64,000 nt of DNA from Deltaproteobacteria bacterium (lineage in GTDB: Bacteria; Myxococcota_A; UBA9160; SMWR01). The position numbers and the translations under genes were made by a program. The notes under the pieces are model-generated. The model saw nothing but the letters and a program-made list of their open reading frames with translations. It did no database searches and had not been told where the DNA came from. Positions 252 through 49,100 of this stretch are shown here, piece by piece (position 1 is the stretch's first letter; every line of letters begins with the position of its first letter). The DNA is taken from NCBI GenBank assembly GCA_031405455.1, contig JANNIY010000130.1:974-64973 (forward strand), written 5' to 3'.

Positions 252-1667
252 CTAGGAAGCCTGCGCGGGCGGCGTCGAGCGGACGCTGCGCTCGGCGCGC
301 CGGTAGAGCGTCTTGCGATCGATGCCCAGGATGCGAGCGGCCCGCACCTTGTTGCCGCCCGTGAGTTGCAGGATTTCGTCGATGTAGCGCTCTTCCACCT
401 CGCGCAGCGAGAGGCGCTTCTCGCCGGCCGCGCGTAGGAAGGCAGCGACCGGAGGCGTGTCCGACACGGTCGCAACCGCTCCGAGCGGCAGGTCCGCCGC
501 GCCGAGTTCGACGCCATCGCAGAGCGCGAGCGAGCGCTCGATCACGTTCTCGAGCTCGCGCGCGTTGCCCTTCCACGCACACGCCGCCAGCCGCTGCATG
601 GCTTCCGGCGACACCGTCCGGCGGGCACCGTCTCCGTGCCGATGCAGGAAGTATTCGACCAGCGCCGGAATGTCCTCGGGACGCTCCCGCAGCGGTGGGA
701 TGTACAGCGGAATTACGTTCAATCGATAGAAGAGATCCTCGCGGAAGCGGCCCTCCTCGATCTCGACTGCCAGATCCTTGTTCGTCGCCGCGACGATTCG
801 CACGTCGACTTTCACCGACTGCGTGCTTCCTACGGCGCGGATTTCGCGGTCCTGGATCACGCGCAGCAGCTTGCCCTGGAGGCCGAGCCCCATGTCGCCG
901 ATCTCATCGAGGAAGAGTGTGCCTCCATTCGCCTTCTCGAACAGACCCTGCTTGGAAGCGTGGGCACCGGTGAACGCGCCGCGCACGTGCCCGAACAGCT
1001 CGCTCTCGAGCAGACCTTCCGGTATCGCCGTGCAGTTGATCGGAATGAAAGGCTTGTCGGCGCGGCTGCCATGGAAATGCAGGGTGCGCGCGACGACCTC
1101 CTTGCCGGTTCCGCTCTCGCCTGTGATCAGCACCGAGCTGCGACCGTGCGCGATCTTGCGGATCAACGCGAAGATCTCCTGCATCGCGGGACTCTTTCCG
1201 ATCAGGTCGCCAAACGCGCTCGTGCGATCGACGGCGCGGCGCAAGCGACGGTTCTCGTCCTCGAGCGCACGCTGCTGGAGCGCGCGATCGACCGCGAACA
1301 TCACGACTTCAGGCTCGAAGGGTTTGGCGATGTAATCGAAGGCGCCGGCGCGCATCGCCTCGACGGCAGAGTCGATGCTGCCGAAGGCCGTCATCACGAT
1401 CGCGGGGGTCTCCGGTCGCAGCCGGTGCAGCTCGCCGATCAGCTCGATGCCGCTGCGCCCGGGCATGCGCACGTCGGTCAGCACGATGCCGAAGTCCAGC
1501 TCGCGGGCCAGGTCGAGCGCCGCGCCTGCGGAAGCTGCCTCGCGCACGTCGAAGCCGCGGTCGCGGAACAGGGACGCGAGCATCTGCCGCATCGCGACGT
1601 CGTCGTCCACCACGAGAAGGGTTCGGTTGGGGTCCATTGCTCCAATCATGAGCACATGCCGTGCCAT
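252..1667 (-). CDS. Sigma-54-dependent response regulator (NtrC family: REC + AAA+ + Fis-type HTH)
   Basis: REC N-terminus LLVVDDD...VLTDVRMPG. Walker A is GESGTGKE and the sigma-54 contact loop is GAFTGA. The C-terminal HTH is GNKVRAARILGIDRKTLYRR. Start is ambiguous: ATG at 1667, 1646 or 1637 (MDPNRTLLVVDDD). Confidence 0.93.
   Translation of the reverse strand: MARHVLMIGAMDPNRTLLVVDDDVAMRQMLASLFRDRGFDVREAASAGAALDLARELDFGIVLTDVRMPGRSGIELIGELHRLRPETPAIVMTAFGSIDSAVEAMRAGAFDYIAKPFEPEVVMFAVDRALQQRALEDENRRLRRAVDRTSAFGDLIGKSPAMQEIFALIRKIAHGRSSVLITGESGTGKEVVARTLHFHGSRADKPFIPINCTAIPEGLLESELFGHVRGAFTGAHASKQGLFEKANGGTLFLDEIGDMGLGLQGKLLRVIQDREIRAVGSTQSVKVDVRIVAATNKDLAVEIEEGRFREDLFYRLNVIPLYIPPLRERPEDIPALVEYFLHRHGDGARRTVSPEAMQRLAACAWKGNARELENVIERSLALCDGVELGAADLPLGAVATVSDTPPVAAFLRAAGEKRLSLREVEERYIDEILQLTGGNKVRAARILGIDRKTLYRRAERSVRSTPPAQAS
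1651..1666 (-). promoter_or_regulatory. Sigma-54 type -24/-12 match (site A) at the 5' end of the activator gene
   Basis: The minus strand reads TGGCACGGCATGTGCT (GG and GC 10 nt apart, as in TGGCAC-N5-TTGCW). The -12 C lies 15 nt upstream of the ATG at 1637. The site would be intragenic if the ATG at 1667 is used. Confidence 0.35.
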
Positions 1668-1767
1668 CGGCGACGACGCCCGAGAAAGCCGTACAGCCTG
1701 TTTCTCTGCACCTTCAGGCAACAGCCAGGGTCATTATGCCACAGTTTTGATAACAGGCGGGCCCGCC

Positions 1768-2790
1768 TCAGAACCGGTAGCCGACCTCGAGCCACCCGAG
1801 AGCGGCCGGCCCAGCGTCGACCGTATCGGCGTCGCCGCCGTGCTCGGCCTCCACTCGCCACTGCTGATAGACGACCGAACCCGCGCCCGCGGCGATCCGC
1901 CAGCGCTTCGTGGGAGACCAACGCAAGCCGACCAGCACGGGAACCCGGCGCTGGCGAAGCGTCGGCGCGCCCAGCGCGGCGCCGCGATCGTCGAGGAGGT
2001 GGGAATTGGATTCGTAGCGAGCGCGCAGCTGAAGCTCCAGCTTGGGATGCAGATCCACTCCGAACAACAGGCCCGCACCGTTCGACTTGAGCCGCATGTC
2101 ATCGCGGATCTTCCAACGAAAGCCGAACACGGGCTGGATGCTCACGCCGCCCTTCGCGAGGCGCGATCCGACTTCGACGCCGAGCGCGAGCGAAAACCGC
2201 GGGTTGAGCTCGAATCCCACGCCGACGGCCCCGGAGCCCTTCGCAGCGTCCGCGACCTGCGCCCCCTCCTCCCAACTCAGCCTGGCGCGTCCCTCGCCAA
2301 AGACCGACCAGCGCGGGTCGATCTCGTAAACCCCCCCGAGCCCGACTTCGAAGCCGTATAGCTCCTCGAAGAGATCGCCTCCGCCGAGGTCCGCCGCCAG
2401 CTCGCTGCGATCGCCGTCGTAGCCATAGAACCAGGCCTGGCCCGCGGTGCTCAATCGCAGCGCGAACGCCCTGGAAACCGGCACCTCCACACTCAGCCCG
2501 AACTCGGAGCGCAGCTCGTTGGCATCCGCCGGCCCGAAATCGGCGAGCACCGACAAGGTCTCCTCGGTGTAGCTGCGCACCCGCGTCTTGGACAACCCGA
2601 TCGAAACGAGCTCCACGATGTCGTCGGGCAACGGTGCGTCCCGCTCGTCCGCGTCGGGTTCGCCGCCAGAAGCAGCCGCGCCGAATGGGAGCCATAGCCA
2701 CACGACGATCCATGCGGTCCACCGAACACGCAGGCGCCAGGTTCGAGCGAGCGGATGCGCTTGCGCTGGACGCTTCAGCAGGTCTCGCAT
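1768..2790 (-). CDS. Hypothetical outer-membrane beta-barrel protein
   Basis: N-terminal hydrophobic signal WIVVWLWLPFGAAASG. Alternating amphipathic strands rich in G/Y/R/E follow. The C-terminus EVGYRF ends in the aromatic residue typical of OMPs. Confidence 0.6.
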   Translation of the reverse strand: MRDLLKRPAQAHPLARTWRLRVRWTAWIVVWLWLPFGAAASGGEPDADERDAPLPDDIVELVSIGLSKTRVRSYTEETLSVLADFGPADANELRSEFGLSVEVPVSRAFALRLSTAGQAWFYGYDGDRSELAADLGGGDLFEELYGFEVGLGGVYEIDPRWSVFGEGRARLSWEEGAQVADAAKGSGAVGVGFELNPRFSLALGVEVGSRLAKGGVSIQPVFGFRWKIRDDMRLKSNGAGLLFGVDLHPKLELQLRARYESNSHLLDDRGAALGAPTLRQRRVPVLVGLRWSPTKRWRIAAGAGSVVYQQWRVEAEHGGDADTVDAGPAALGWLEVGYRF

Positions 2791-2947
2791 GGCTGCGACG
2801 CAGCCTCCCTGCCTGTCACGTTATCCTCTTCTCACTGCCCGAGTGCAAGCAGGCAGCGGCGTGGGCGCAGAGGAGCTCGCTCCGGCTACGCTGCAGATCG
2901 CAGTCGGCCCCATTCTCGAACGGCGTACACCCGCGGAGGCGATTCCG

Positions 2948-3418
2948 ATGAACCGATGCAGCATGGCCACATCCGATGGAACGCGCAGCCCGTCGGAGCC
3001 GGCCCGGATTCGACTCCAGGCGCCGCTGCGCCGCTCGCTCGCACTTGCCGCCAGCTTGCTCGCCATCGGGTGCTCGACCCGCCAGGTCGAGGAGCCGGCG
3101 GGACGCGAAGTCTATCTGCGCCACTGCGCCGCCTGTCACGGCGACGCCGGGAAAGGCGACGGGCCGGTGGCGATCTCCCTGCGACAGCCGCCGTCGGATC
3201 TGACCACGATCGCCCGCCGCAACGGCGGCAGCTTCGACGAGCGGCGCGTGATGCAGGTGATCGATGGGCGCTCGCTCGTCGCGGCGCATGGCACGCGAAG
3301 CATGCCCGTGTGGGGCATCGTCTTCGAAGACGAACTCGAGGGCGAGCCGTATTCTGGATACACCTCGCTCCTGCGCTCGCGCAATCTGACGGATTATCTG
3401 CGTTCGATTCAGCAGTAG
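2948..3418 (+). CDS. c-type cytochrome lipoprotein (monohaem)
   Basis: ATG at 2948, lipobox LLAIGC, haem motif CAACH and a distal MPVWG. It is a paralogue of the CDS at 48679-49098. Confidence 0.8.
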   Translation: MNRCSMATSDGTRSPSEPARIRLQAPLRRSLALAASLLAIGCSTRQVEEPAGREVYLRHCAACHGDAGKGDGPVAISLRQPPSDLTTIARRNGGSFDERRVMQVIDGRSLVAAHGTRSMPVWGIVFEDELEGEPYSGYTSLLRSRNLTDYLRSIQQ

Positions 3419-3547
3419 TCCGGGTGGGGCGCACGCATCGGCTCGGAGACTCCCCGCGCCTGGCGGGATTCCCGTTGCGCCCCGCACCGGTCTGGGGCGG
3501 TTGTCGTCAGTTCGCGCGCTGCGCGTGCATGCGCTGACACCGCACGG

Positions 3548-3563
3548 CGGTACGCTCGTTGCA
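3548..3563 (+). promoter_or_regulatory. Sigma-54 type -24/-12 match (site B, GGTAC variant)
   Basis: CGGTACGCTCGTTGCA has a perfect TTGCA -12 element and correct spacing. The -12 C is 15 nt upstream of the ATG at 3577. Confidence 0.4.
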
Positions 3564-3576
3564 GGGGTGAAGCGGC

Positions 3577-4725
3577 ATGCGCGACGCTTCTCCCCTGCGT
3601 CCCCGGGCGCTCCCCGAGTTCGCAGACGTGCGCTCCCTTGCCGACCCTCGTCGGGGCCCTCTCGTCTCGCTCTACCTGCCGTTGCTGCGCGGCTTTCCGC
3701 ACGTGCGGCAGAACGCAGCCGCCTACCAGGGCGCCGTCGCGGAAGCCGAACTCCGACTCCAAGCCGCTGGCCTGTCCCCAGGCGAGGCCGCAGCCTCCGG
3801 CGAACAGCTCGCCGCCGTCGAAACGGATCTCCGGCGCTTCGAGCGCCGCGCGGCAGGCGTCGCCGTCTTTCGCGACCGCGCAACCCTTCACGCCTATGGC
3901 CTTCAGCAGGAGCCCGCGCGCTGCGTGATGGTTGCGGACAACTTTGCCCTGCGTCCGCTGCTGGCGGCCGTGCACCGCGACCGGCGCTACCACGTACTCG
4001 CGCTGTCGACGAATCGCGTTGCACTGTTCAAGGGGGATGCCTTCGGGCTGGCGACGATCCTGGCGCAGGGTGTACCCGCAAGCTTGGAGGATGCACTGGG
4101 GACCGAGCTGACCGCCAAGGAGCTACGCGTCAGTGGAACCCAAGCGGGCGCTGCCTCGCCGCGCTACTTCAGCCACGACAGCGGCCGCGACGAGCGCAAG
4201 CTCGATCTCAAGCGCTTTCATCTGCGAATCGCGCGCGCGATCGAGGCAGAACTCGTGGGCTGCGATGAGCCCCTCATCCTGGTCGCGGCACAAGCTCACC
4301 ATTCGGGATTGCGCGCCGCGCTGCGCCTGCCGTGCCTGCTTCCCACGGGTGTGGAGACCAGCCCAGATCATCTTTCGACGAGCGACCTGCACGCGCGTAC
4401 CTGGCCGCTCGTCGACGACGCCAGCGACGCAGAAGACGCGGCACTGGCGAGCGAGTACGAGGGCTTCGTCGCTCGCGGCAAGGGTCTGCACCGCATCAGC
4501 GACGTCGCGGCGGCCTCCGCTGCCGGGCGCGTACACCGGCTCTGGGTGACTCGCGACGAACGTCTGCCGGGGGCGATCGATCCCGCGAGCGGCGTGCTCG
4601 TCGGAGGCCGCCCCGAGGAGGACGTGCTCGACGGCATCGTCAGCCTGGTGCTGCGCCACGGCGGCGACGTGATCGTCAGCCGCTGCGTCCCGTCCGGCTC
4701 GAGCGTCGCAGCGGAGCTGCGCTGA
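3577..4725 (+). CDS. baeRF3-like protein (bacterial archaeo-eukaryotic release-factor family)
   Basis: 382 aa. Recalled family hallmarks are present: GPLVSLYLP near the N-terminus, RRYHVLALSTNRVALFKG in the middle, PLILVAAQ, and an acidic C-terminal domain. No database search was possible, so the family assignment is from memory. Confidence 0.6.
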   Translation: MRDASPLRPRALPEFADVRSLADPRRGPLVSLYLPLLRGFPHVRQNAAAYQGAVAEAELRLQAAGLSPGEAAASGEQLAAVETDLRRFERRAAGVAVFRDRATLHAYGLQQEPARCVMVADNFALRPLLAAVHRDRRYHVLALSTNRVALFKGDAFGLATILAQGVPASLEDALGTELTAKELRVSGTQAGAASPRYFSHDSGRDERKLDLKRFHLRIARAIEAELVGCDEPLILVAAQAHHSGLRAALRLPCLLPTGVETSPDHLSTSDLHARTWPLVDDASDAEDAALASEYEGFVARGKGLHRISDVAAASAAGRVHRLWVTRDERLPGAIDPASGVLVGGRPEEDVLDGIVSLVLRHGGDVIVSRCVPSGSSVAAELR

Positions 4726-4807: not shown

Positions 4808-4823
4808 CGGCACGCGTCTTGCT
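4808..4823 (+). promoter_or_regulatory. Sigma-54 type -24/-12 match (site C)
   Basis: CGGCACGCGTCTTGCT lies 50 nt upstream of the ATG at 4872. A strong SD (GGAGGGGAGAG) sits between them. Confidence 0.6.
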
Positions 4824-7314: not shown

Positions 7315-8580
7315 TCAACCGGCGGAGGGGCCAGGCGAGTCGGCCCCGGGAAAGGCGACACGAAATTCGGTGCTCTCGCCGGGGGTGCTCGTCGCAGCGA
7401 TCGTCCCGCCGTGATCGGTCACGATGCCTTGGGCCACCATCAACCCCAGACCGTTGCCCTCGCCAGCCGGCTTCGTGGTGAAAAAAGGCTCGAAGATGCG
7501 CGGCAGATCTTGCTCGGCGATACCGGCGCCGGTGTCGGCGACACACAGCTCGATGCGACCCTCGGAGCCCGGGTGCAGCGATACGTGCAGGGTGCCGCCA
7601 TTCGGCATCGCGTCGGCGGCGTTGAGGAACAGATTCAAGAAGAGCTGTTGTAGCCGCTCGGGATCCGCGATCAGGCTCGGCGTCGGTTCGAACGCGCGCT
7701 CGACCTCGATACCGCGCCGCTTGAGCTTCTCCGACACGAAGGACAACGTGGTCTCGAGCAGCGGCTCGAGCGCAATCGGCACCCGCCGCCGGCGCCCCGG
7801 CCGCGCCATGTTGAGCAGCGTCTGGATGATCTTCGAGATGCGGGCGATCTGCTCCTGGATCGTCCGCAGCCGCCAGCGCGCCTGCTCGCCCGTCACCTCG
7901 GGCTCGAGCAGCTTCGCGTGCCCCTGGATCACGCCCATGGGCGTGCCGATTTCGTGGGCGAGCCCGGCGACCAGCGTGGCGATCGAAGCCAGCTCTTCCG
8001 CGGCCTTCGCCCGCGAGGCGGTCTGACGCAGCTCGGAGCCCTGCTCCTCGAAATCGCGCGCGAGGCGACGACTCTGCGCCTCGAGTTCGTGGGTGAGATA
8101 CTCGAGCCCGCTGTCGTGATCCTCGATGTACGCCTCGAGCGCGATCTGGGCGTCGAGCATCAGGAGTTTCTGGAGCGCGACCACCGTGCGCATCGCTCGC
8201 TCCGGGTCGGCCGCGTAGGTATCGAAGATCAGGGGTGTGAGCAGGGAGAGGTAGCCGGCGTAGGCGCCGAGGTACCAACGCGGCTCGAGACCGATCTTCT
8301 GGTGCACCTCGCCGATGCGCCGGCGCTGGGCGACAAAATCCTCGTCGAAGGTCGGGTTCGCGAGGCTGAGCAGATACTCGCGCTGCTTGATGAGGAGGCG
8401 TTCCTTCACTCCCGGCTCGCGGAGCAGCTCGCGGGTCGGGCCAAAGGAGAGCAGATTGCGATAGAAGGCCGCCACGAAACTCGCGGCGTTGCGCTCGAGG
8501 GCAGGCCCGAGCGCAGCGAGCAACTCCACGTCCGCCGCTGTCATTCCCAGGTAGCTGAGCTGCTGCTGAAGCTTGTTCAC
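7315..8580 (-). CDS. Globin-coupled sensor histidine kinase
   Basis: The N-terminal protoglobin/GCS-like domain reads FVAAFYRNLLSF...RRRIGEVHQKIGLEPRWYLGAYAGYL, with a candidate proximal His. The H-box is LAHEIGTPMG, the N-box NLFLNAADAM and the G-boxes DTGAGI / GNGLGLMVA. Start is a GTG at 8580 or an ATG at 8544/8676. Confidence 0.85.
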   Translation of the reverse strand: MNKLQQQLSYLGMTAADVELLAALGPALERNAASFVAAFYRNLLSFGPTRELLREPGVKERLLIKQREYLLSLANPTFDEDFVAQRRRIGEVHQKIGLEPRWYLGAYAGYLSLLTPLIFDTYAADPERAMRTVVALQKLLMLDAQIALEAYIEDHDSGLEYLTHELEAQSRRLARDFEEQGSELRQTASRAKAAEELASIATLVAGLAHEIGTPMGVIQGHAKLLEPEVTGEQARWRLRTIQEQIARISKIIQTLLNMARPGRRRRVPIALEPLLETTLSFVSEKLKRRGIEVERAFEPTPSLIADPERLQQLFLNLFLNAADAMPNGGTLHVSLHPGSEGRIELCVADTGAGIAEQDLPRIFEPFFTTKPAGEGNGLGLMVAQGIVTDHGGTIAATSTPGESTEFRVAFPGADSPGPSAG

Positions 8581-8726
8581 TCCCCACAGGGTCGGCGTCA
8601 CAGCCGGCAGAGTCAATGGCGGCCGCCCCCCCTCGCCCCACTCCCCCCGCCTGCTCGCAGGGGCGCTTCGACTCACCAGAGCCGCCCGCAGCGACGCAAC
8701 GCGGCGCCTGGCGGGTCGCGACCGCT

Positions 8727-8742
8727 TGGCACATCGAATGCA
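8727..8742 (+). promoter_or_regulatory. Sigma-54 type -24/-12 match (site D)
   Basis: TGGCACATCGAATGCA. The -12 C is 16 nt upstream of the ATG at 8757. Confidence 0.5.
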
Positions 8743-8756
8743 CCGGGAGTCGGCTC

Positions 8757-9230
8757 ATGCAGCGGGTCCCTACGCCGGAACGCACCCCCACCGCAATTCG
8801 CGAGCCGCGAAGCCCGCGCGTGCGCGACGTCATGCGGCGCGACTTCATCACGATTTCGCAGCAGGAGAGCGTGCTCGAGGCCCTGGAGCTGATGCGGCTC
8901 GCGCGCCTGCGTCATCTGACGATCGCCGATCAAGGCGTGCTGATCGGAATCCTCAGCTACCGAGACCTTCAAGACGAGCTGCTCGCACAGATCGACCCGG
9001 CGGCGGGGTTCCAGGGCGAGCCCGCGGTCCAACATTCCGCGGCCGTCGAGCACGTCTCGGGCTCTCCCTACTCGATCAGCCCGGATGCGACGCTTGCCGA
9101 AGCGGCGGCCCGGCTCGAGCGACTCCGCGTCGGCTGTCTGCCGGTCGTCGAACCGGGGGAACAGGGTCTGCGGGTCGTGGGCCTGCTCACGGAGATGGAT
9201 CTGCTGCGCGCCGCCTTTCAGACGCCCTGA
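8757..9230 (+). CDS. CBS domain pair protein
   Basis: Two CBS repeats: VRDVMRRDFITISQQESVLEALELM...LIGILSYRDL and VSGSPYSISPDATLAEAAARLERLRVGCLPVV...VVGLLTEMDLL. Confidence 0.85.
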   Translation: MQRVPTPERTPTAIREPRSPRVRDVMRRDFITISQQESVLEALELMRLARLRHLTIADQGVLIGILSYRDLQDELLAQIDPAAGFQGEPAVQHSAAVEHVSGSPYSISPDATLAEAAARLERLRVGCLPVVEPGEQGLRVVGLLTEMDLLRAAFQTP

Positions 9231-9268
9231 GGCGAAGCCCGCAGGAACGCGGTACCCCCTCCGCGATC

Positions 9269-10705: not shown

Positions 10706-12018
10706 CGGAGACCCTCGCGCAGCGGCTGCGCGGAGCGCTCGCGGGCTCGCCCCTCGCCGAGCGCCTCGCGACGGCAGCGGCGCCGTTGCTCGAGCGCCGT
10801 TCGGAAGACGCCGCCGTGCGACGTCTCGCAGGCCCTGCCCTCACCGGCCTCGCGCGCGGCGTCGCGACACAACCCGAATTCGCCGGCTTCCTATCGCATC
10901 GTCCGGAGCTGCTCGAGCGCATCGCGCAGGCGAACGCGGAAACGCTCGGCCGCCGCGCCAGCGAACTCGCTGCGAGCGCGCAGGCGGAAACGTCCGGCGA
11001 TCTCGAGAGCGAGCTCGATGCGCTGCGCCTGCTGCGTCGCGAGGAGACCGCGATCGCAGTCTGCTGCGATTTTGGCGGATTGGCGGCGTTCGAGCAGGTG
11101 TCGGCCTTTCTCTCGATCCTCGCCGAAACGATCACGGCGCGCGCCCTGCGGCTCGCGCGACGCGGCCCCGGCTTGTCGCGGCAGACCTTTGCGGCGATCG
11201 GAATGGGCAAGATCGCCGGGCGCGAGTTCACCCATCACTCGGATCTCGACTTGATTTTTCTCTACCAGGGGGGACCCGATGAAGTCGCGCTGGCTTCCAA
11301 GATCGGACAACGCCTGATCGCCTACCTCACGACGATGACGGGCGCCGGCATCGCCTACGCCGTCGACACGCGCTTGCGTCCCTCGGGCCAGAAGGGAATG
11401 CTCGTCACCTCGTTCGAGGGCTTCACGCGCTACCAGCGCGAGACCGCAGAAACCTGGGAGCATCTGGCACTGCTGCGCTCGCGCCCGATCGCAGGGGAGC
11501 TGACGATCGCGAACGAGGTCCTGGACGACGTGCGCCACTTCATCCTGCGCGGCGGGCAGAAGCCGTGGCCCTACCTCGCCGATCTGCGCGCGCGCGTCGA
11601 GCGCGAGCGTGCGAAGGAGGATGCCACGCAGCTCGCCTTCAAGACGGGTGCTGGCGGCCTGATGGACGTCGATTTTCTTGCCGGCGGCGGGCTGCTCGAA
11701 CGGGGCACCCGGAACTTTCCGGCGTTCCCGAGCGTCGCCGCGATGCTCGCCTGCACGCTCCCGGCGGCAGCAACGCAGAGATTGCTCGCCGACTACGGCT
11801 GGCTGCGCCGCAGCGAGGCGCGTGCGCGCTGGGTCGCGGGCCGGGCCGTCGAGGAGATCCCGGCGGGGGGCGAGTCGTTGGTCGCGATTGCGGAACTCAG
11901 CGAACCCGGCCTTGCCCCCGCGGCGCTGCTCGACCAGATCCGCGCCGTGCGCCGTCGGATCCGCGCCGCCTATCAGGCGGTCGTCGACGCCGAAACGATC
12001 ACCGCGTTCCCGGGTTGA
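10702..12018 (+). CDS. glnE: Glutamine synthetase adenylyltransferase, C-terminal (adenylyltransferase) half
   Basis: The GTG at 10702 overlaps the upstream stop (GTGA). A second NTase motif, GMGKIAGREFTHHSDLDLIFLY, and RLRPSGQKG are present. Confidence 0.8.
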   Translation: MTETLAQRLRGALAGSPLAERLATAAAPLLERRSEDAAVRRLAGPALTGLARGVATQPEFAGFLSHRPELLERIAQANAETLGRRASELAASAQAETSGDLESELDALRLLRREETAIAVCCDFGGLAAFEQVSAFLSILAETITARALRLARRGPGLSRQTFAAIGMGKIAGREFTHHSDLDLIFLYQGGPDEVALASKIGQRLIAYLTTMTGAGIAYAVDTRLRPSGQKGMLVTSFEGFTRYQRETAETWEHLALLRSRPIAGELTIANEVLDDVRHFILRGGQKPWPYLADLRARVERERAKEDATQLAFKTGAGGLMDVDFLAGGGLLERGTRNFPAFPSVAAMLACTLPAAATQRLLADYGWLRRSEARARWVAGRAVEEIPAGGESLVAIAELSEPGLAPAALLDQIRAVRRRIRAAYQAVVDAETITAFPG

Positions 12019-12068
12019 GCGACCGCGCGCCCGCTTCGGGTACCCTGAAACCCGACCCGGAGGAAAGC

Positions 12069-13253
12069 ATGACCGCGCGGCTCGCCTATCCCGCCTTCGA
12101 CTGCGACAACCACTACTACGAAGCGCTCGACGCCTTCACCCGCCACATGGACCCGCGGCTCGCGAAGCGCGCCGTCCAGTGGGCGGTGATCGACGGCCGC
12201 AAGCGGCTGTTGGTGGCAGAGCGCATCAATCGCTTCATCCCCAATCCCACCTTCGACCCCGTCGCAAAAGCCGGCTGCCTCGATCGCTTCTTTCGCGGCG
12301 ACAACCCCGAGGGTCTCGACATCCGCGCCGCCTTCGGCGAGCTCGAGCCGATCCGCCCGGCCTATCGCGACCGCGAGGCGCGGCTGGCGCTGATGGACGA
12401 GCAGGGGATCGAAGGCTGCCTCCTGTTTCCGACGCTCGGCGTCGGCATCGAGCACCCGTTGCGCCACGACGCCGAGTTGACGCACGCCACGCTGCACGCC
12501 TTCAACCAGTGGCTGGACGAAGATTGGGGCTTCGCCTGGCGCGAACGCATCTTCGCCGCGCCCATGCTCTCGCTGATGGACGTACAGCGGGCCGTGACGG
12601 AGCTCGAGTGGGTGCTCGCACGCGACGCGCGCGTGGTGCTACTGCGCGCGGCGCCGGTGCCCGGCGCCAGACGTCGCTCGCTCGGCGATCGCGCGTTCGA
12701 TCCCTTCTGGGCGCGCGTGAATGAAGCCGGCATCACGGTCGCCTTTCACGCCGGCGAGAGCGGCTATGGCGAGTACGCATCGCATTGGGGAGAGCCCGAG
12801 AACCTGGAAGCCTTCGGCGGCGGGCCGTTCCGGAGCGTCACGCAGACCGACCGCTCGATCTACGACGCGCTCGCGGCGCTGATCATCCACGGCGTCTTCC
12901 AGCGCTTCCCCAACGTGCGTGTCTGCAGCATCGAAAACGGCTCGGAATGGGTGCACAGCCTGCTCTCGAAGCTGAAGAAAGCCGAGCGCATGAATGTGCA
13001 CGCCTTCCTCCAGCCGCCGATCGAGACTTTTTGTCGCCACATCTCGGTGGCGCCCTACTATGAAGAAGACGTGCGTGCGCTCGCCGACACGATCGGCATC
13101 GACAAAGTCCTGCTCGGCTCGGACTTCCCACATGCCGAGGGCCTCGCCGACCCGCTCTCGTTTCTCGACGAGCTGAAGGCTTTCACGCCCGACGATGTCC
13201 GCCTCGTGATGCGCGAAAACGGCAAACGCCTGGTGACACACCAAAGGCCGTAG
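12069..13253 (+). CDS. Amidohydrolase-2 family metal-dependent hydrolase
   Basis: SD GGAGGAAAG precedes the ATG at 12069. DCDNHYY at the N-terminus and GSDFPHAEG near the C-terminus are typical of the TIM-barrel amidohydrolase_2 family. Confidence 0.75.
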   Translation: MTARLAYPAFDCDNHYYEALDAFTRHMDPRLAKRAVQWAVIDGRKRLLVAERINRFIPNPTFDPVAKAGCLDRFFRGDNPEGLDIRAAFGELEPIRPAYRDREARLALMDEQGIEGCLLFPTLGVGIEHPLRHDAELTHATLHAFNQWLDEDWGFAWRERIFAAPMLSLMDVQRAVTELEWVLARDARVVLLRAAPVPGARRRSLGDRAFDPFWARVNEAGITVAFHAGESGYGEYASHWGEPENLEAFGGGPFRSVTQTDRSIYDALAALIIHGVFQRFPNVRVCSIENGSEWVHSLLSKLKKAERMNVHAFLQPPIETFCRHISVAPYYEEDVRALADTIGIDKVLLGSDFPHAEGLADPLSFLDELKAFTPDDVRLVMRENGKRLVTHQRP

Positions 13254-13318
13254 TCGATTTCGCTCTCTTGTCTGCGCCGCGTGTATTCGCGTAATCGACG
13301 ATCGCCTTCGGCATGCCA

Positions 13319-13759
13319 TCACGCCGGGCCGGGGCGCTTTCCCTGCCCTGCTCGGCGCAGCGCGCCCATCACGTCCTCCCGCGCGATGATGCCCACGACG
13401 CGGCCTGCGTCCACCACCGGCAAGCTCTTGCTCCGCGTGTCCACCAGTTTCTGGAGCACCCGCGTGAGCGGCGTGCGCGGGCAAACGCTGAGCAGATCGC
13501 GCGACATCACCTCCGACACCGGCCGCTCGAAAACACGCTCGAACGCCGGCAGGATCACGTCCTCGGAGAAGGCAAACGCCTCGAGCAGATCGAGCGAGGT
13601 CACGAAGCCCACCGGTCGCTCCGCGGCATCGACCACCGGCAGCCCGTTCCAGCCGTGCTTCTCGAGCAGTGCCTCGGCCTCGGCGAGCGTCGTCTCCTCG
13701 CGAACGCAAACCGGGCGCGACATCACATCCTGGACCTGGTAGTCGAGAAATTCGTACAT
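13319..13759 (-). CDS. CBS domain pair protein
   Basis: 146 aa with two CBS repeats: VQDVMSRPVCVREETTLAEAEALL...GFVTSLDLL and VSEVMSRDLLSVCPRTPL...VVGIIAREDVM. Confidence 0.9.
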   Translation of the reverse strand: MYEFLDYQVQDVMSRPVCVREETTLAEAEALLEKHGWNGLPVVDAAERPVGFVTSLDLLEAFAFSEDVILPAFERVFERPVSEVMSRDLLSVCPRTPLTRVLQKLVDTRSKSLPVVDAGRVVGIIAREDVMGALRRAGQGKRPGPA

Positions 13760-13819
13760 GGCTCCGCCTCCCTCACGCGGCCGTCGCCGGCCCCAGTTTC
13801 CAAATCCGGATCTCGAACC

Positions 13820-15241
13820 TCAGGTCGCCCGGGCGACTCGCTCGATGCACACCCGCTCGCCGTGGCGTGCGACCACGGCCTCGAGCTGCAAGCGTTCGCT
13901 GAGTGTCACCCGCAACGCCTCGGCGGCCTGCGGCTCGGCGTGCACCACGAACGTCAGCCCCGGCCGTCCTTCGGCGCTGCCAACCCAGGCGACGATTTCC
14001 GGCTGGTCCGCGTGCACCGAGAACGCGCTCGCGTCGAACACTTCGGCGCGCACCGGAACGTAGCGTCCGAGCATCTTCAGGAACGGACGCCCCTCGAGCA
14101 GCTGCCGACCACGCGTCTCGGAGGGCTGGAAGCCGGTGAGGATCACGCTGTTACGGGGATCGGGGAGGCGCGCGGCGAGGTGGTGGAGCACGCGGCCACC
14201 CGTCGCCATCCCGGAAGCCGAGACGATGATGGCCGGACCCCGCTCCTGGTGAATCGCCTTCGAACTCGCGACATCGCGCGCTTCGCGCAGGTCGCCCGGT
14301 TCGAAGGGATCGTCGACGTCGTGCAGCTCGCTGCGAATCTCCGGATCGCCGCTCGCGATCGCTGCGCGATAGACCGCGAGCGCGGCGAGGGCCATCGGGC
14401 TGTCTACGTAGACGGGCACGCGCGGCACCGCCCCCGCTCGCATCAGGCGCCGCAGATGGAAGAGCACGACTTCGGTGCGATCGACGGCAAAGGCCGGAAT
14501 CACGGCGACCCCACCCCGTTCGGCCGTGCGCACCAGCGCCTGAGCGAAGCGCGCGAGCCCCGCCTCGTCGTCATGCGTGCGGTCTCCGTAGGTGGCTTCG
14601 ACGAGCAGCACGTCGCACGCCGGCGGCGGCGCGGGCGGCACGAGCAGCGGGTGCGCCGTCCGTCCGAGATCCCCGCTCACGACGAGCTTGCGCGGCTCGG
14701 GCCCCGCGATTTCGAGCACGATGCTCGCCGAACCCAGGATGTGCCCTGCCGTCCGGAAGCTCGCGCGAACGTCAGGCGCCACTTCGATGGGCGTGTCGTA
14801 GGCGACACCCCGGAAATTCTCGAGGATCGCGTCGGCGTCTTTTTCGGTAAAGAGAGACAGAGCGGGATCGTGCTTGGAGTAGCCCTTGCGGTTCGCGTAC
14901 GCCGCGTCTTCTTCTTGAAGCCGCCCGCTATCGGGCAGCACGATGCGGCAGAGCTCGAGCGTCCGCTGCGTCGCGAATACCGTGCCGCGAAATCCAGCGC
15001 GTCCCAGCGCTGGCAGATAACCCGAATGATCGACGTGGGCGTGCGTCAACACTACGGCATCGATCGTCTCGGGCGGCACCGGAAACGGCTCCCAGTTGCG
15101 CAGCCGCAGAGCCTTTTCGCCCTGGAATAGCCCACAGTCGACGAGCACGCGCGCACGGCCCGTCTCGACGAGAAACCGGCTGCCGGTCACGGTGCCCGCA
15201 GCGCCGAGAAACTGGATCACGGGTACGGACGGAGTCGACAT
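13820..15241 (-). CDS. MBL-fold beta-CASP family hydrolase (RNA-metabolising type)
   Basis: LGAAGTVTGS, the HAHVDHSG (HxHxDH) motif, and beta-CASP-style C-terminal motifs ending in FVVHAEP. Confidence 0.85.
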   Translation of the reverse strand: MSTPSVPVIQFLGAAGTVTGSRFLVETGRARVLVDCGLFQGEKALRLRNWEPFPVPPETIDAVVLTHAHVDHSGYLPALGRAGFRGTVFATQRTLELCRIVLPDSGRLQEEDAAYANRKGYSKHDPALSLFTEKDADAILENFRGVAYDTPIEVAPDVRASFRTAGHILGSASIVLEIAGPEPRKLVVSGDLGRTAHPLLVPPAPPPACDVLLVEATYGDRTHDDEAGLARFAQALVRTAERGGVAVIPAFAVDRTEVVLFHLRRLMRAGAVPRVPVYVDSPMALAALAVYRAAIASGDPEIRSELHDVDDPFEPGDLREARDVASSKAIHQERGPAIIVSASGMATGGRVLHHLAARLPDPRNSVILTGFQPSETRGRQLLEGRPFLKMLGRYVPVRAEVFDASAFSVHADQPEIVAWVGSAEGRPGLTFVVHAEPQAAEALRVTLSERLQLEAVVARHGERVCIERVARAT

Positions 15242-15253
15242 CGCGAATCGACC

Positions 15254-15979
15254 CTATAGCGCTTTTCGGATCCTGCGATATCCGTCGCGAATTTCGTCGA
15301 TCAGCAGGCGGGCGGCGTCGCGCACTTCGCGCAGAGGTTCCTCGCTGACCTGCGCGATCTGGCGACCCTTTCCCTCGAGGCGATGAAACTCGTGTTCGAG
15401 CTTCTCCCACTGATCCTTCGCGTCGGCCTTCGCCAGATGCACGCGCACGTTCAGCTCGTCGCGCACCCGGCGCAGCTCGTCGAACTCGCTCCGAAAACGT
15501 TCCTTCCACTCGGACATGATCGATTCCTCCTCCCGATTGTTGCTTCCACGGTCGCTTGCATCGGGCAACAGCGCGGCCGTGAGCAGATCTGTCTCGGTGA
15601 CGAGCCCTACGAAGGTCCCATCCGCCTTCACCACGGGGACGCAGCCGATCTTGTGCCGCACCATCAGCGCCGCCGCCTCGCGCAGCGTCGCGTCGCGTTT
15701 GACCGTGATCAGGTCTTGCGACATCACCTCGGCGACTTCGACCGAACGCAAAAGGCTCCGGTGCCCCGTCACTTCGTAACCGAGCGCACGCGACAGTGAA
15801 GCCGCCAGCAGATCCCGACTCGACACGATGCCCACGAGCTTTTCCCCGTCGAGGACGGGCATGTGCCGCACGCGGCCCAGCCGCATGACGTCTTCCGCCA
15901 GGTCGAGGCGGTCCTGAACGGTGAGCGTCGCCACCTCGGACTGCATCACCTCGCACACCTGCCGCGCCGCCGCGTCCAT
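15254..15979 (-). CDS. CBS pair fused to an 87-aa helical/coiled-coil tail
   Basis: SD GAGGAGGGCGAGG precedes the ATG at 15979, followed by two CBS repeats. With no intervening stop the frame continues into MSEWKERFRSEFDELRR..., which has its own SD (GGGAGGAGG) and ATG at 15517. Confidence 0.8.
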   Translation of the reverse strand: MDAAARQVCEVMQSEVATLTVQDRLDLAEDVMRLGRVRHMPVLDGEKLVGIVSSRDLLAASLSRALGYEVTGHRSLLRSVEVAEVMSQDLITVKRDATLREAAALMVRHKIGCVPVVKADGTFVGLVTETDLLTAALLPDASDRGSNNREEESIMSEWKERFRSEFDELRRVRDELNVRVHLAKADAKDQWEKLEHEFHRLEGKGRQIAQVSEEPLREVRDAARLLIDEIRDGYRRIRKAL

Positions 15980-16006
15980 CCTCGCCCTCCTCAGCCTCTT
16001 TGCAGG

Positions 16007-16022
16007 TGCAGAATCGGTGCCA
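16007..16022 (-). promoter_or_regulatory. Sigma-54 type -24/-12 match (site E)
   Basis: The minus strand reads TGGCACCGATTCTGCA. The -12 C is 29 nt upstream of the ATG at 15979. Confidence 0.6.
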
Positions 16023-16146
16023 GCGTTTGCGAGCCGCACGAGCCTCCGCAACGTCGTGTGTGCGGCGACCTGCCTCAGTCGAGGCCCCCTCCTACCCGGA
16101 TTCCCCTGGCTGGTGAGAACCCGTTCGGACGCGCGGTTCCCGCCGG

Positions 16147-18278: not shown

Positions 18279-18325
18279 GGGTCCTCCCTTGGCCAGGTCC
18301 AACCCGGCAACCTTCCCCTGGCTAA

Positions 18326-18341
18326 AGCAGATCACGTGCCA
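18326..18341 (-). promoter_or_regulatory. Sigma-54 type -24/-12 match (site F)
   Basis: The minus strand reads TGGCACGTGATCTGCT. It is intergenic, with the -12 C 49 nt upstream of the USP ATG. Confidence 0.65.
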
Positions 18342-18475
18342 AGCGGTCGCGGCGATGCAGGCGCCACCAACCTGAAATTCCATTCAGCGACTGGGTTGAT
18401 AGGGAACAGTCCTAGCCGAAAACGTAGCCCATTGCCACAGTTTTAGGTTCGCGCGAGCCAGCGAAATCAGATGGA

Positions 18476-18898
18476 TCACGCGCGTTCGGAGATCGCCGCC
18501 ACGAGGCCTTCCTCGCGTTTTTCGTGGTCGACCAGCACCGCGCACCAGTGCGCGAGCGCCTCCTGGGAGGCGGCGGCAGGCACCTGATCGAGCCGCTCGC
18601 CGAGTCGGCGCAGATCCGCGAGCAGGCTCGCATGCTCGCGCTCGAGCGCCTCGAGATCCGCCGACCGGGAAGGCGAAAGGCCGTGAAGCGCCGGAAAAAA
18701 GAAGCCTTGCTCGAGATCGAAGTGCGCAGCGAGGGCGACCTCGAAGCGATCCAGGGCGCTGCGCGCGTCGCTCAATGCACCGCGTCCGAGCGCGACTTCG
18801 ATCTCGCGCCGCAGCGCGGAAAGGTGGCGGTGTTGGTCCAAGGTCTGCTGTACGAGACGCTTCACCCGCAGCTGGAGACCCGTATCGAAGATCGGCAT
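18476..18898 (-). CDS. Hemerythrin-like (HHE cation-binding) domain protein
   Basis: 140 aa, all-helical. Spaced His/Glu/Asp ligand motifs are HRHL..., AAHFDLEQGFFFP, LEREH and LVDHEKRE. Confidence 0.7.
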   Translation of the reverse strand: MPIFDTGLQLRVKRLVQQTLDQHRHLSALRREIEVALGRGALSDARSALDRFEVALAAHFDLEQGFFFPALHGLSPSRSADLEALEREHASLLADLRRLGERLDQVPAAASQEALAHWCAVLVDHEKREEGLVAAISERA

Positions 18899-18957
18899 GC
18901 GGCGAGGTCACTCCTCTTCTTGCGCGCGGCGGGGCGCTTCCGCTGGCAAAGACTACC

Positions 18958-18973
18958 CGCAAACAGCGTGCCA
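18958..18973 (-). promoter_or_regulatory. Sigma-54 type -24/-12 match (site G)
   Basis: The minus strand reads TGGCACGCTGTTTGCG, an almost perfect TGGCACG-N4-TTGC. It lies 61 nt upstream of the hemerythrin ATG, with SD AGAGGAG in between. Confidence 0.65.
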
Positions 18974-29828: not shown

Positions 29829-29831
29829 CAC

Positions 29832-49098: not shown

Positions 49099-49100
49099 CC

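Follow-up and report, generated by a model that had tools for sequence, protein, structure and literature searches.

The analysed stretch of 64,000 nucleotides (hereafter, the window), from an uncultured Myxococcota lineage, probably carries the core genes of a sigma-54-dependent two-component regulon in which a globin-coupled histidine kinase acts directly on an NtrC-type activator and the activator on upstream dyads, in an Nmp-like scheme that lacks the NmpS/NmpT relay. In the proposed mechanism, the cytoplasmic haem-globin kinase (7315-8601) would sense O2, another diatomic gas or the redox state and would phosphorylate the activator (252-1637) directly at D55; the activated AAA+ hexamer would then assemble at dyads of the GGGGC-N5-GCCCC type, lying some 45-100 nt ahead of the promoters, and remodel the sigma-54 holoenzyme on TGGCACG-N4-nTGC(A/T) promoters. 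The predicted targets are the activator gene itself, CBS proteins (one sharing its operon with a split GlnE-like enzyme), a USP and APH/AAA_33 kinase operon, hemerythrin, a CBS and beta-CASP RNase operon, baeRF3 and a Zn-ribbon/CBS pair; a distal acetyl-CoA-transferase/cytochrome c operon is only a probable target.

Genes of the proposed regulon

The domain assignments of the sequence-only reading (REC-Sigma54_activat-HTH_8, Protoglobin-HisKA-HATPase_c, baeRF_family3, CBS, Usp, Hemerythrin and Beta-Casp/RMMBL) were all recovered by Pfam, which is the basis of each entry below, with any further evidence in brackets.

252..1637, minus strand: sigma-54 activator (bEBP) with REC, AAA+ bearing GAFTGA, and HTH_8 (translation)
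3577..4725, plus strand: baeRF_family3 protein (bacterial aeRF1-like)
4872-5078, plus strand: small CxxC...CxxC protein, 68 aa
5123-5401, plus strand: single-CBS protein, after the small CxxC protein gene
7315..8601, minus strand: globin-coupled histidine kinase, Protoglobin-HisKA-HATPase_c (PDB alignments)
8757-9230, plus strand: CBS pair, first gene of the site D operon (8757..13253)
9269-10705 and 10702-12018, plus strand: split GlnE-like nucleotidyltransferases, site D operon
12015-13253, plus strand: Amidohydro_2, site D operon
15254-15979, minus strand: CBS-fusion protein, first gene of the site E operon (13319..15979; synteny)
13820-15220, minus strand: beta-CASP/RMMBL RNase, site E operon (synteny)
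13319-13759, minus strand: CBS pair, site E operon (synteny)
17829-18278, minus strand: USP, behind site F
16147-17814, minus strand: APH-like/AAA_33 P-loop kinase, 14-nt gap to the USP gene
18476..18898, minus strand: hemerythrin, behind site G

The gene order of the site D operon was kept in four related loci (L084, L085, L088 and L095). The "kinase" behind USP was ruled out as a histidine kinase, being an APH-like/AAA_33 P-loop protein whose homologs carry the source annotation [quoted passage not shown]. For the baeRF family, a role in translational shutdown together with HPF has been proposed (PMC6514570).

Sigma-54-type promoter sites

Nine 16-mers (A to I) had been read as -24/-12 promoters, and all were found at the positions and on the strands reported then; A to G are given here, and H and I with the distal operon.

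1651..1666, minus strand: site A, TGGCACGGCATGTGCT, putative -24/-12 promoter of the activator gene, 13 nt from the ATG at 1637
3548..3563, plus strand: site B, CGGTACGCTCGTTGCA, weaker -24/-12 site, 13 nt from the baeRF3 ATG
4808..4823, plus strand: site C, CGGCACGCGTCTTGCT, 48 nt from the gene of the 68-aa CxxC protein
8727..8742, plus strand: site D, TGGCACATCGAATGCA, putative promoter of the CBS/glnE-like/amidohydrolase operon, 14 nt from its start codon and divergent from the kinase gene
16007..16022, minus strand: site E, TGGCACCGATTCTGCA, 27 nt from the CBS-fusion start
18326..18341, minus strand: site F, TGGCACGTGATCTGCT, 47 nt from the USP ATG, with a good Shine-Dalgarno sequence
18958..18973, minus strand: site G, TGGCACGCTGTTTGCG, 59 nt from the hemerythrin ATG, one mismatch to TGGCAC-N5-TTGCW

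All nine are non-coding and each faces a start codon, as had been claimed, although 13-59 nt, and not 15-61 nt, separate it from the 3' end of the site. The claimed motif enrichment held: the degenerate pattern YGGYAC-N6-TGCW has eight matches in the window, whereas 100 dinucleotide shuffles of it gave an expectation of 0.66 and never reached eight. GG-N10-GC by itself was not enriched in the window (1350 vs 1361), so that the signal resides in the full motif. In the window and six syntenic loci, 26/28 near-consensus sites (at most one mismatch) fell in intergenic DNA, oriented upstream of a gene, in loci of which 8.7% is non-coding, and in 80 independent metagenomic loci 73 of the 101 sites with at most one mismatch were oriented upstream.

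Phylogenetically, sites A and C to G stand out as footprints; B and H are weaker sites, though conserved, and I is unconserved. In L090, L091 and L092 the activator start is likewise preceded by site A, at 13-14 nt, and a counterpart stood 6-17 nt before it in 24/25 metagenomic loci. Autoregulation of the activator through a near-leaderless transcript, positive in sign, is predicted. Site B was the best-conserved block upstream of baeRF3 in L095 and L098, where its form is CGGTAYGYTCGTTGCA, and site C was kept at 47 nt in L095 and L096. The 16-mers of sites E and F were identical in L084, F being kept also in L085, L088, L090 and L091, and G was kept in L084. When the orthologous intergenic regions were compared with those of relatives whose proteins are 62-80% identical, nothing but the D, E and F sites, the Shine-Dalgarno sequence and the ATG stood out as conserved islands. 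Judged by their statistics, their orientation and their footprints, the sites behave as genuine sigma-54 promoters; rpoN was not found within the 64-kb window.

Sites recurred before the same gene families in the metagenomic set: activator genes (24/25), orthologous CBS genes (22/30, or 27/30 by a second count), CBS-fusion orthologs (14/18) and hemerythrin genes (13/17). Only 4/15 USP genes had one, which counts against the proposed regulon. The globin kinase gene had no sigma-54 site of its own in the window, and just 1/63 of its orthologs had one.

A dyad as candidate activator site

The dyad consensus came from an unbiased enumeration and was then checked on an independent set of regions. 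GGGGC-N5-GCCCC was the top result, in 9/32 promoter regions against 0.75, and in the independent set it was present in 24/67 regions (control mean 1.5, maximum 4), including 10/15 activator promoters; CBS and CBS-fusion promoters shared it. This enrichment suggests that the dyad may be the site bound by the activator, although GC-rich palindromes were found at likely terminators too. Three elements with two mismatches each accompany sites A, D and E:

1728..1742, unstranded: degenerate dyad GTGGC-ataat-GACCC, centre 69 nt upstream of site A
8660..8674, unstranded: dyad-like element GGGGCGCTTCGACTC, centre 60 nt upstream of site D
16062..16076, unstranded: dyad-like element, centre 47 nt upstream of site E

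The first overlaps a 12-mer, AAAACTGTGGCA, that recurs in the site F region (as an 11-mer, AAACTGTGGCA, at 18433-18443), and GTGGC-N5-GNCCC-like elements occur at the activator promoters of L090 and L092; the block upstream of site D was kept in L084 and L085. Scanning the window within two mismatches gave no dyad at sites B, C, F and G; such degeneracy or absence at most promoters of the window speaks against the proposed scheme.

The globin kinase and the activator as a probable pair

The translated activator has D55, K105, GAFTGA and the Walker A motif GESGTGKE, and its orthologs are found at 72-92% identity in many Myxococcota MAGs. In the kinase, PDB alignments placed the conserved proximal His100 and distal Tyr47 haem ligands with their counterparts in HemAT and AfGcHK; the globin domain is 26-30% identical to AfGcHK, HemAT being the better match, and the kinase core is closest to ZraS, whose partner regulator is of the NtrC type.

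The kinase gene of more distant relatives lies directly upstream of the activator gene in 24/50 loci, both on one strand and 54-367 nt apart; L090 and L091 show this arrangement. Around these pairs, too, lie CBS, USP and hemerythrin genes. An insertion separates the two genes in the sublineage of the window; the split arrangement occurs only in the eight loci with a kinase of at least 78% identity to that of the window. From this adjacency and shared direction, the orphan globin kinase and the orphan NtrC-type activator very probably form a cognate pair, as the earlier circuit had assumed, and we infer direct phosphotransfer between them.

Direction of the oxygen response

In relatives, Hsp20 and COX1/CcoN-like (cbb3-like oxidase) operons are also found behind sigma-54 sites, with a nitroreductase in addition. 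Such a gene set suggests a regulon for adapting to low oxygen or to limited energy, and the low-oxygen or quiescence theme of the dormancy regulon proposed earlier fits it; whether it deserves the label "dormancy-like" would depend on the direction of the oxygen response.

The same direct wiring with the opposite sign, in which the O2-bound kinase is active and the regulon answers oxygen exposure in an oxygen-sensitive organism, is a possibility to be taken seriously, if an unlikely one. The only characterised globin kinases, AfGcHK and NmpU, are active in the O2-bound form, autophosphorylating with haem O2-bound or present, and, the wiring here being direct and free of an inverter, induction by oxygen and not by hypoxia would follow; hemerythrin, USP, Hsp20 and nitroreductase could equally protect against oxidative stress. 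However, a relative has its cbb3-like high-affinity oxidase operon behind a sigma-54 site, and such oxidases are typically induced by low O2 (PMC11841059); the gene families overlap the hypoxia-induced NmpR regulon, and the globin domain is distant from that of AfGcHK, so its ligand logic need not match.

One activator or several

Myxococcota encode dozens of bEBPs, so another activator could serve some of these promoters. That several activators share them, the neighbouring one controlling itself and perhaps one or two operons, is rather improbable: the same gene families bear sites wherever the kinase-activator pair occurs, and the dyad is common to activator and to CBS and CBS-fusion promoters, even though it is weak or absent at several promoters of the window, the motif comes in two flavours (GGGGC-N5-GCCCC and GTGGC-N5-GNCCC) and M. 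xanthus has many NtrC-like activators (PMC11841059).

Relation to NmpRSTU

The sequence-only reading knew of no such circuit, but the closely similar oxygen-sensing NmpRSTU of Myxococcus xanthus was described in 2018 and 2025, with a protoglobin kinase, an NtrC-like regulator and sigma-54 promoters of CBS, USP, hemerythrin and cbb3 oxidase genes, and the parallel with DosR was already drawn there (PMC6211767, PMC11841059). The circuit of the window is therefore a differently wired variant of Nmp-like logic and not a new kind. Both have a globin kinase and an NtrC-like regulator driving sigma-54 promoters of CBS, USP and hemerythrin genes; in contrast to Nmp, the surroundings of the window's kinase yielded neither an NmpS nor an NmpT relay, both its kinase and its activator are only remotely homologous to Nmp-type proteins, and baeRF3, beta-CASP, APH/AAA_33 kinase and glnE-like genes, with Hsp20 in relatives, go beyond the Nmp regulon.

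A bona fide NmpRSTU ortholog, in which kinase and activator would be NmpU and NmpR, with an NmpS hybrid kinase and an NmpT phosphosink encoded elsewhere in the genome and the signal still routed through an inverter, is quite improbable. The shared domain architectures of sensor and regulator, the matching autoregulation and regulon families (CBS, USP, hemerythrin, cbb3; PMC11841059) and the CBS gene beside that of the globin kinase, an arrangement described in Anaeromyxobacter, would fit it, and with an inverter a kinase active with O2 would be compatible with targets of the low-O2 type. Yet no REC-kinase hybrid or 2xREC protein was found in the window or in 86 related loci. In L071, a genuine Nmp-type cluster, the components all lie side by side, and the 2018 paper describes nmpRSTU as contiguous in other deltaproteobacteria. 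The activator gene, moreover, directly follows the kinase gene in the paired loci, the globin domain resembles HemAT more than AfGcHK, the activator is 46% identical to that of L071, no closer than to generic bEBPs, and the published NmpR site GCGCA-N5-TGCGC occurred in 0/32 promoter regions.

Ordinary NtrBC-type nitrogen control, suggested earlier by the glnE-like genes after site D, can be given almost no weight despite the NtrC family of the activator and the two GlnE-domain genes of that operon: glnE-like genes merely follow a CBS gene and had no site of their own (0/21, metagenomic set), no NtrB, glnA, glnB/K or amtB lies in the window, the linked sensor is a globin, the USP, hemerythrin, beta-CASP, baeRF3, Hsp20 and oxidase targets are unrelated to nitrogen assimilation, and the enriched dyad differs from the enteric NtrC site.

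The distal operon

The probable distal target is the operon behind site H; it is listed here with site I and the genes after that site, all genes being assigned by Pfam and by synteny in L173 (minus strand) or in L173 and L174 (plus strand).

48679-49098, minus strand: cytochrome c, site H operon (48679..50974)
49101-50405, minus strand: acetyl-CoA hydrolase/transferase, site H operon
50402-50974, minus strand: unknown 190-aa protein, site H operon
51019..51034, minus strand: site H, CGGCACGCCGTGTGCA, two mismatches, 44 nt from the start codon
51064..51118, unstranded: three tandem dyads exactly 20 nt apart, GGGGCGAAGCGCCCC being exact at 51064, and those at 51084 and 51104 having two mismatches each
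51138..51153, plus strand: site I, TGGTACGGATACTGCT, two mismatches, 43 nt from the start codon
51197-52399, plus strand: clade-specific 400-aa protein (family n = 154)
52418-53317, plus strand: Zn-ribbon protein
53338-54405, plus strand: SPFH/Band7-GYF protein

Site I showed no conservation in L173, which makes it doubtful as a sigma-54 promoter. The ortholog of site H there, CGGCATACTGCGTGCA, has three mismatches and retains GG, GC and TGCA. The first and third tandem dyads (51064 and 51104) were also kept in L173, and the array is the best candidate enhancer (UAS) of the window.

Sigma-54 promoter sites and the genes behind them

The promoter observation is confirmed: all nine 16-mers that a sequence-only reading had taken for -24/-12 (sigma-54) promoters were found at the claimed coordinates and strands, each in non-coding DNA and oriented toward a start codon 13-59 nt away. 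Because the genome is about 68% G+C and abounds in spurious ORFs, genes were called with a codon log-odds model and their starts inspected by eye; a cut-off on GC3 of 0.80 overlooked many of them. The sites and the two regulatory genes are:

252-1637 (-): activator gene, a bEBP with REC-AAA+(GAFTGA)-HTH_8 architecture
1651: site A, before the activator gene
3548: site B, before the baeRF3 gene
4808: site C, before genes for a 68-aa CxxC protein (Zn-ribbon) and a single-CBS protein
7315-8601 (-): kinase gene, Protoglobin-HisKA-HATPase_c
8727: site D, before a CBS-pair gene and two GlnE-domain genes
16007: site E, before CBS-fusion, beta-CASP and CBS genes
18326: site F, before the USP gene
18958: site G, before the hemerythrin gene
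51019: site H
51138: site I, before the gene of a 400-aa protein

The domain calls of the earlier reading were right for the activator, baeRF_family3, kinase, CBS, GlnE, beta-CASP, USP and hemerythrin genes. Behind site F, where a USP and a kinase had been named, the USP stands, and the second protein is a 555-aa P-loop AAA_33 "APH-family/predicted kinase", not a histidine kinase.

The pattern YGGYAC-N6-TGCW matched eight times in the window against 0.66 expected (100 dinucleotide-preserving shuffles, 0/100 reaching eight), and site G was recovered at one mismatch to TGGCAC-N5-TTGCW. The sites hold GG and GC exactly 10 nt apart within the latter consensus; the bare GG-N10-GC spacing was not enriched in the window (1350 vs 1361), indicating that the full motif carries the signal. 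Over 99 sites the consensus was TGGCACG-N4-nTGC(A/T), the first T of TTGC not being kept in the clade.

An enrichment in correctly oriented intergenic DNA had been estimated for the window, and the comparison of motif density there and in coding DNA, made over the window and its relatives, agreed with it: upstream-oriented placement dominates. In the window and six related loci (188.6 kb, 8.7% non-coding), 26/28 sites with at most one mismatch lay in correctly oriented upstream intergenic DNA, preceding USP, CBS, CBS-fusion, activator, hemerythrin, beta-CASP, cytochrome c, Zn-ribbon and hyp106 genes, and the same held for 73/101 such sites in an independent metagenomic sample of 489 kb, despite a coding share of 88-91% in the scanned DNA. 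Two-mismatch matches in the window and six related loci were mostly coding (25/39), as noise would give. Chance as the origin of the sites is excluded. A one-mismatch match at 6626-6641 was ruled out as a YkuD promoter, being inside the signal-peptide coding sequence.

Domain searches of the 64-kb window found no rpoN; its presence in the genome is expected because a bEBP is present, the activator, whose GAFTGA loop (Pfam and translation) makes it available for sigma-54 sites. The 3' ends of sites A, B and D are only 13-14 nt from start codons (1637-1666, 3548-3579 and 8727-8759), and the activator-site spacing is kept across the clade. Given this short distance, leaderless or near-leaderless sigma-54 transcripts are predicted from A, B and D, unless holoenzyme bound between the gene of the kinase and that of the activator has some other role; the Shine-Dalgarno-like GGAG at these three sites would by implication be usable only on transcripts reading through from upstream.

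Conservation of the sites among relatives

The AAA_33 protein served as the entry to syntenic relatives (loci L084, 80% identity; L085-87, 73%; L088, 62%), in which the conserved order is hemerythrin, USP, (GNAT-)AAA_33, CBS-fusion, (beta-CASP), CBS, amidohydrolases, two glnE-like genes, CBS and a divergent protoglobin kinase. Alignments of the orthologous intergenic regions around sites D, E and F showed no conserved islands other than the -24/-12 element, the Shine-Dalgarno sequence and the ATG. Site G is kept in L084, and site C in the related loci L095 and L096. Site B fell below the two-mismatch cut-off of the site scan and was hence missed there; it is the most conserved block 5' of baeRF3 in L095 and L098, as CGGTAYGYTCGTTGCA. 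Site H persists in the syntenic locus L173 with GG, GC and TGCA intact, and site I showed no conservation in that locus. The -24 halves of sites B and H are weaker.

A search of metagenome contigs with an alignment restricted to the protoglobin domain yielded 80 further loci, at 55-85% identity, in which the sites were distributed over the gene families as tabulated. A COX1/CcoN-like four-gene operon and Hsp20 genes also stand behind sigma-54 sites in relatives.

Genes preceded by a sigma-54 site in the metagenomic loci

Activator: 24/25, always 6-17 nt before the N-terminus
Kinase-divergent CBS: 22/30 (27/30 by another count)
CBS-fusion: 14/18
Hemerythrin: 13/17
Zn-ribbon: 2/2
USP: 4/15
Globin kinase: 1/63
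GlnE-like: 0/21

Probable pairing and apparent integrity of kinase and activator

The kinase and the activator, each an orphan in the window, had been joined into one circuit by the sequence-only reading, and gene adjacency in relatives, a comparative-genomic line of evidence, supports this wiring. Activator orthologs 72-92% identical to that of the window occur in many MAGs labelled Myxococcota or Myxococcales. In two related loci (L090 and L091) the activator gene is immediately preceded, in the same orientation, by the gene of the protoglobin kinase, with USP, AAA_33, CBS and hemerythrin genes around them, and the activator gene was the kinase's downstream neighbour in 24 of the 50 loci having a neighbour, with gaps of 54-367 nt. 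The split arrangement, which in the window results from an insertion of YkuD, cytochrome c, baeRF3, Zn-ribbon/CBS and outer-membrane protein genes between the two, was confined to eight loci with a kinase at least 78% identical to the window's (L092, L095 and L098 among them). Adjacency in 24/50 loci, and separation only in the sublineage of the window, make it very probable that the two orphans are a separated cognate pair.

The kinase core was closest to ZraS (E = 3e-35). A full-length kinase query of genome contigs, in which generic kinase motifs dominated, retrieved 80 unrelated kinases, among which ZraS-like cores mostly sit directly before NtrC-type activator genes. In the globin domain a proximal His (H100) and a distal Tyr (Y47) align with the haem ligands of HemAT and of AfGcHK, the Anaeromyxobacter globin-coupled kinase, and the activator retains D55, K105, Walker A and GAFTGA. 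With the catalytic and haem-ligand residues and a ZraS-like core in place, both proteins look functional.

A candidate enhancer upstream of the promoters

The dyad GGGGC-N5-GCCCC came top of an unbiased 5-N5-5 enumeration, being present in 9/32 promoter regions against 0.75 in same-locus controls, and it was found again on independent metagenomic promoters, in 24/67 regions (control mean 1.5, maximum 4), including 10/15 activator promoters. Counted upstream from the -24 element, the centres of its copies fall at about 45-75 nt; the copies are often in tandem and 20 nt apart, and some lie between divergent genes, where they cannot be explained as terminators. Support from the window's own sequence is weaker. 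The clearest case there, a trio of dyads (51064, 51084 and 51104), lies between sites H and I, and two-mismatch versions accompany sites A, D and E. An AT-richer form, GTGGC-N5-GNCCC, stands at activator and USP promoters. The 12-mer AAAACTGTGGCA, common to the regions of sites A and F, was rejected as a separate motif, since an 11-mer scan of the window gave six matches (at most two mismatches) against 5.3 expected; we read it as a degenerate dyad copy that the AT-richer form would explain.

The dyad is a candidate binding element of the activator. Within two mismatches, no dyad was found at sites B, C, F and G of the window, and for such sites several activators may share the promoters.

Comparison with NmpRSTU of Myxococcus xanthus

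Experimental knowledge of a protoglobin-kinase, NtrC-like and sigma-54 oxygen circuit comes only from M. xanthus, whose NmpRSTU system comprises NmpU (protoglobin kinase), NmpT (2xREC), NmpS (REC-HisKA-CA) and NmpR (NtrC-like regulator) (Bretl et al. 2018, PMC6211767; McAllister et al. 2025, PMC11841059). When oxygen drops NmpS phosphorylates NmpR, which is not directly phosphorylated by NmpU; NmpR binds pairs of GCGCA-N5-TGCGC and activates sigma-54 promoters, its targets being the CBS gene heading its own operon, the nmpU operon, USP, a P-type ATPase with cbb3 oxidase, and pilR (PMC6211767, PMC11841059). According to a later paper (PMC12753109), the hemerythrin-like gene mxan_5531 is Nmp-regulated as well. 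The sequence-only reading had known of no description of a circuit such as the one it proposed; NmpRSTU is a published circuit of the same kind, so that novelty is not supported, and the likening to the mycobacterial dormancy regulon was made by the Nmp authors themselves (PMC6211767, PMC11841059).

The window and its relatives share with Nmp the Protoglobin-HisKA-HATPase architecture of the sensor, the NtrC-like architecture of an output regulator that would act at sigma-54 promoters via a multi-copy 5-N5-5 dyad, predicted positive autoregulation, CBS, USP, hemerythrin and cbb3-type oxidase targets, and a Myxococcota host. The relay is different. No NmpS-type REC-kinase hybrid and no NmpT-type 2xREC protein was found in the window or among the 605 genes of 86 related loci, which hold 78 globin kinases, 28 REC-AAA+ activators, no hybrids and no double receivers. 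The full-length kinase query supplied a positive control by chance: in a locus of the planctomycete Anatilimnocola sp. NA78 (L071, NZ_CP187419.1), NmpS-like and NmpT-like genes are present in a complete, contiguous Nmp-type cluster at 9986-15117, in the order protoglobin kinase, 2xREC, REC-PAS-kinase, REC and REC-sigma54-HTH (bEBP); the receiver domain of that activator contains an in-frame stop codon in the assembly. A true Nmp system with its relay genes encoded elsewhere in the genome would account for the shared sensor, regulator and target types and is possible but unlikely, the kinase gene lying directly before the activator gene in about half of the loci, unlike Nmp, where NmpU does not phosphorylate NmpR.

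The published NmpR site (two copies 14-15 bp apart) was rejected as the enhancer here, being found at no more than one mismatch in 0/32 promoter regions against 1.45 expected, whereas the different 5-N5-5 dyad was enriched. The globin domain is 26-30% identical to that of AfGcHK, and the planctomycete globin 38%; over its full length the kinase has 28% identity with the planctomycete NmpU-like protein. At 46% identity, against 44-47% to unrelated bEBPs, the activator appears no closer to the planctomycete Nmp-type activator than to these. Unlike nmpU, which is NmpR-regulated, the kinase gene lacks a sigma-54 drive; the regulon has the extra targets baeRF3, beta-CASP RNase, APH/AAA_33, split GlnE-like, a nitroreductase operon and a TrkA channel, with Hsp20 in relatives, and no link to pilR was seen. 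On these tested features, namely relay, kinase, activator, binding site and regulon, we file the system as a probable differently wired variant of the Nmp kind, not a member of the Nmp system. This simpler two-component form is found in more than 80 metagenomic loci of uncultured Myxococcota; the account is drawn from comparison of genomes and offers no new principle.

Comparison with other haem-based and NtrC-type systems

AfGcHK (Anae109_2438, Anaeromyxobacter sp. Fw109-5) has the same globin-coupled histidine kinase architecture with proximal His and distal Tyr and, as in the window, a CBS-pair gene beside the kinase gene (PMC11841059). The similarity is weak (36.6 bits, vs 63.5 bits to HemAT), and the partner here is a full NtrC-type activator, unlike the double-receiver (2xREC) partner of AfGcHK.

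DosS/DosT-DosR of Mycobacterium tuberculosis likewise places a haem-based gas sensor kinase over a regulon that contains USP and CBS proteins. The DosR regulon is rich in USP, CBS-only (Hrp1-type), alpha-crystallin and nitroreductase families, and the AAA_33 protein may correspond to Rv2004c and baeRF3 to Rv2629. Rv2004c and Rv2005c co-occur with DosR in paper titles and terms; Rv2629 is not named in PMC6514570. The mycobacterial system has a GAF-haem sensor, a NarL/LuxR-type regulator and a sigma-70-type polymerase, unlike the protoglobin and REC-AAA+-HTH_8 proteins of the window, and the signalling proteins of the two show no homology. The proposed analogy with the DosR regulon is thus one of function only, and the sensor and regulator types of DosS/T-DosR are absent.

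FixLJ-FixK of rhizobia is similar in having a haem sensor kinase that governs the cbb3 oxidase, among other genes, when O2 is low, a comparison drawn in PMC11841059; it differs in its PAS-haem sensor, its LuxR-type FixJ and a first step that is not sigma-54 dependent. The ZraSR and NtrB-NtrC pairs resemble the system in the kinase core, which is closest to ZraS, and in that genes of kinases with such cores are mostly followed directly by an NtrC-type activator gene; they have periplasmic metal-binding or PAS sensors instead of a cytoplasmic globin, and another regulon. Nitrogen (NtrBC) control, which had been offered as an alternative because glnE follows site D, is not supported, as the glnE-like genes have no site of their own (0/21) and only ride behind the CBS gene, the window contains no NtrB, glnA or glnK/amtB, and the sensor of the kinase is a globin.

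Proposed mechanism and direction of the response

In the most likely scheme the globin kinase would sense O2, another gas or the redox state and directly phosphorylate the activator, which would oligomerise on the dyads and open sigma-54 closed complexes at the listed promoters, its own included. AfGcHK and NmpU are active when O2-bound, and NmpS acts as the inverter of the Nmp system (PMC6211767, PMC11841059). Without an inverter there are two options: the kinase is active when deoxy, its response to ligand possibly the reverse of that in AfGcHK, or the regulon responds to oxygen exposure. Three features weakly favour low-oxygen induction: the cbb3-like oxidase, Hsp20, and the targets shared with the Nmp regulon, which hypoxia induces.

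Tentatively, and with rather less than even confidence, we propose a short-circuited relative of Nmp, widespread in uncultured Myxococcota, in which the globin kinase would act on the sigma-54 activator directly, without NmpS and NmpT; for low-oxygen genes to be induced, the haem domain would have to switch the kinase on in the deoxy state, opposite to AfGcHK and NmpU; gas sensing would be coupled to quiescence with baeRF3 (a predicted ribosome-blocking aeRF1 homolog), beta-CASP RNase, APH/AAA_33 kinase and split GlnE-like enzyme; and near-leaderless transcripts would encode the activator and baeRF3. The regulon would place three poorly understood families, baeRF3, APH/AAA_33 kinase and CBS-linked split GlnE, under a gas or redox sensor, which offers a condition under which to study their physiology, and regulon membership supports the proposal that baeRF proteins take part in stress-linked translational shutdown.

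Further observations on the gene neighbourhood

At 9269-12018 the GlnE-like function is split over two ORFs that overlap at 10702-10705, each with a GlnE nucleotidyltransferase domain. The two are always co-oriented behind the CBS-pair gene and followed by Amidohydro_2, and the split is kept in the related loci L084, L085, L088, L095 and L098. The enzyme may act on a target other than glutamine synthetase.

An Hsp20/alpha-crystallin gene lies directly 3' of the globin kinase gene in L094 (5128-5695), L095 (10029-10596), L100 (3997-4566) and L117 (3830-4367), following a perfect or near-perfect sigma-54 site, e.g. TGGCACGCGCATTGCA. The kinases of the first three are 78-85% identical to that of the window, and that of L117 66%. 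The gene has been lost from the window, where the next ORF follows the kinase stop after only 178 nt. In L092 (17450-18625), about 9 kb from the activator, the perfect-consensus site TGGCACGCTGGTTGCA precedes the gene of a 106-aa unknown protein and then a nitroreductase gene, a possible further member of the regulon.

In several relatives a GNAT acetyltransferase precedes the AAA_33 protein or forms a fusion with it, and a PLD-family gene comes next (homologs P0006, P0011-P0013, P0017 and P0018; L085 10001-13392); these partners suggest that the USP operon includes a module for modifying small molecules or proteins. The 400-aa protein at 51197-52399, 3' of site I, belongs to a clade-restricted family of 154 proteins with no Pfam domain, sometimes fused to cytochrome c and always followed by a Zn-ribbon gene and an SPFH/Band7-GYF gene.

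An 88-aa Lpp-like alanine-zipper lipoprotein is encoded at 5476-5742 (+) and is wholly overlapped by the 3' part of a long antisense ORF, 5488-7137 (-), that bears YkuD; the limits of the YkuD gene probably differ from those of the ORF.

The OmpR-type regulator and HAMP-PAS kinase encoded intact at 21332-23826 have copies with internal deletions at 19008-19355 and 19352-19807 (77% and 74% identity), within the stretch 19008-21124. The regulator copy lacks most of the receiver domain, the kinase copy consists of the ATPase domain only, and a GDSL lipase gene lies between the deleted copies and the intact pair. L084 is without this insertion, its intact pair being directly divergent from hemerythrin. 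A polyphosphate/phosphate block at 23890-35064 (ppk, OmpR-type regulator, AraC, phoU, pstBACS and porin) adjoins the stress cluster, and ppk/ppx/phoU are next to the hemerythrin-USP cluster also in L085 and L084.
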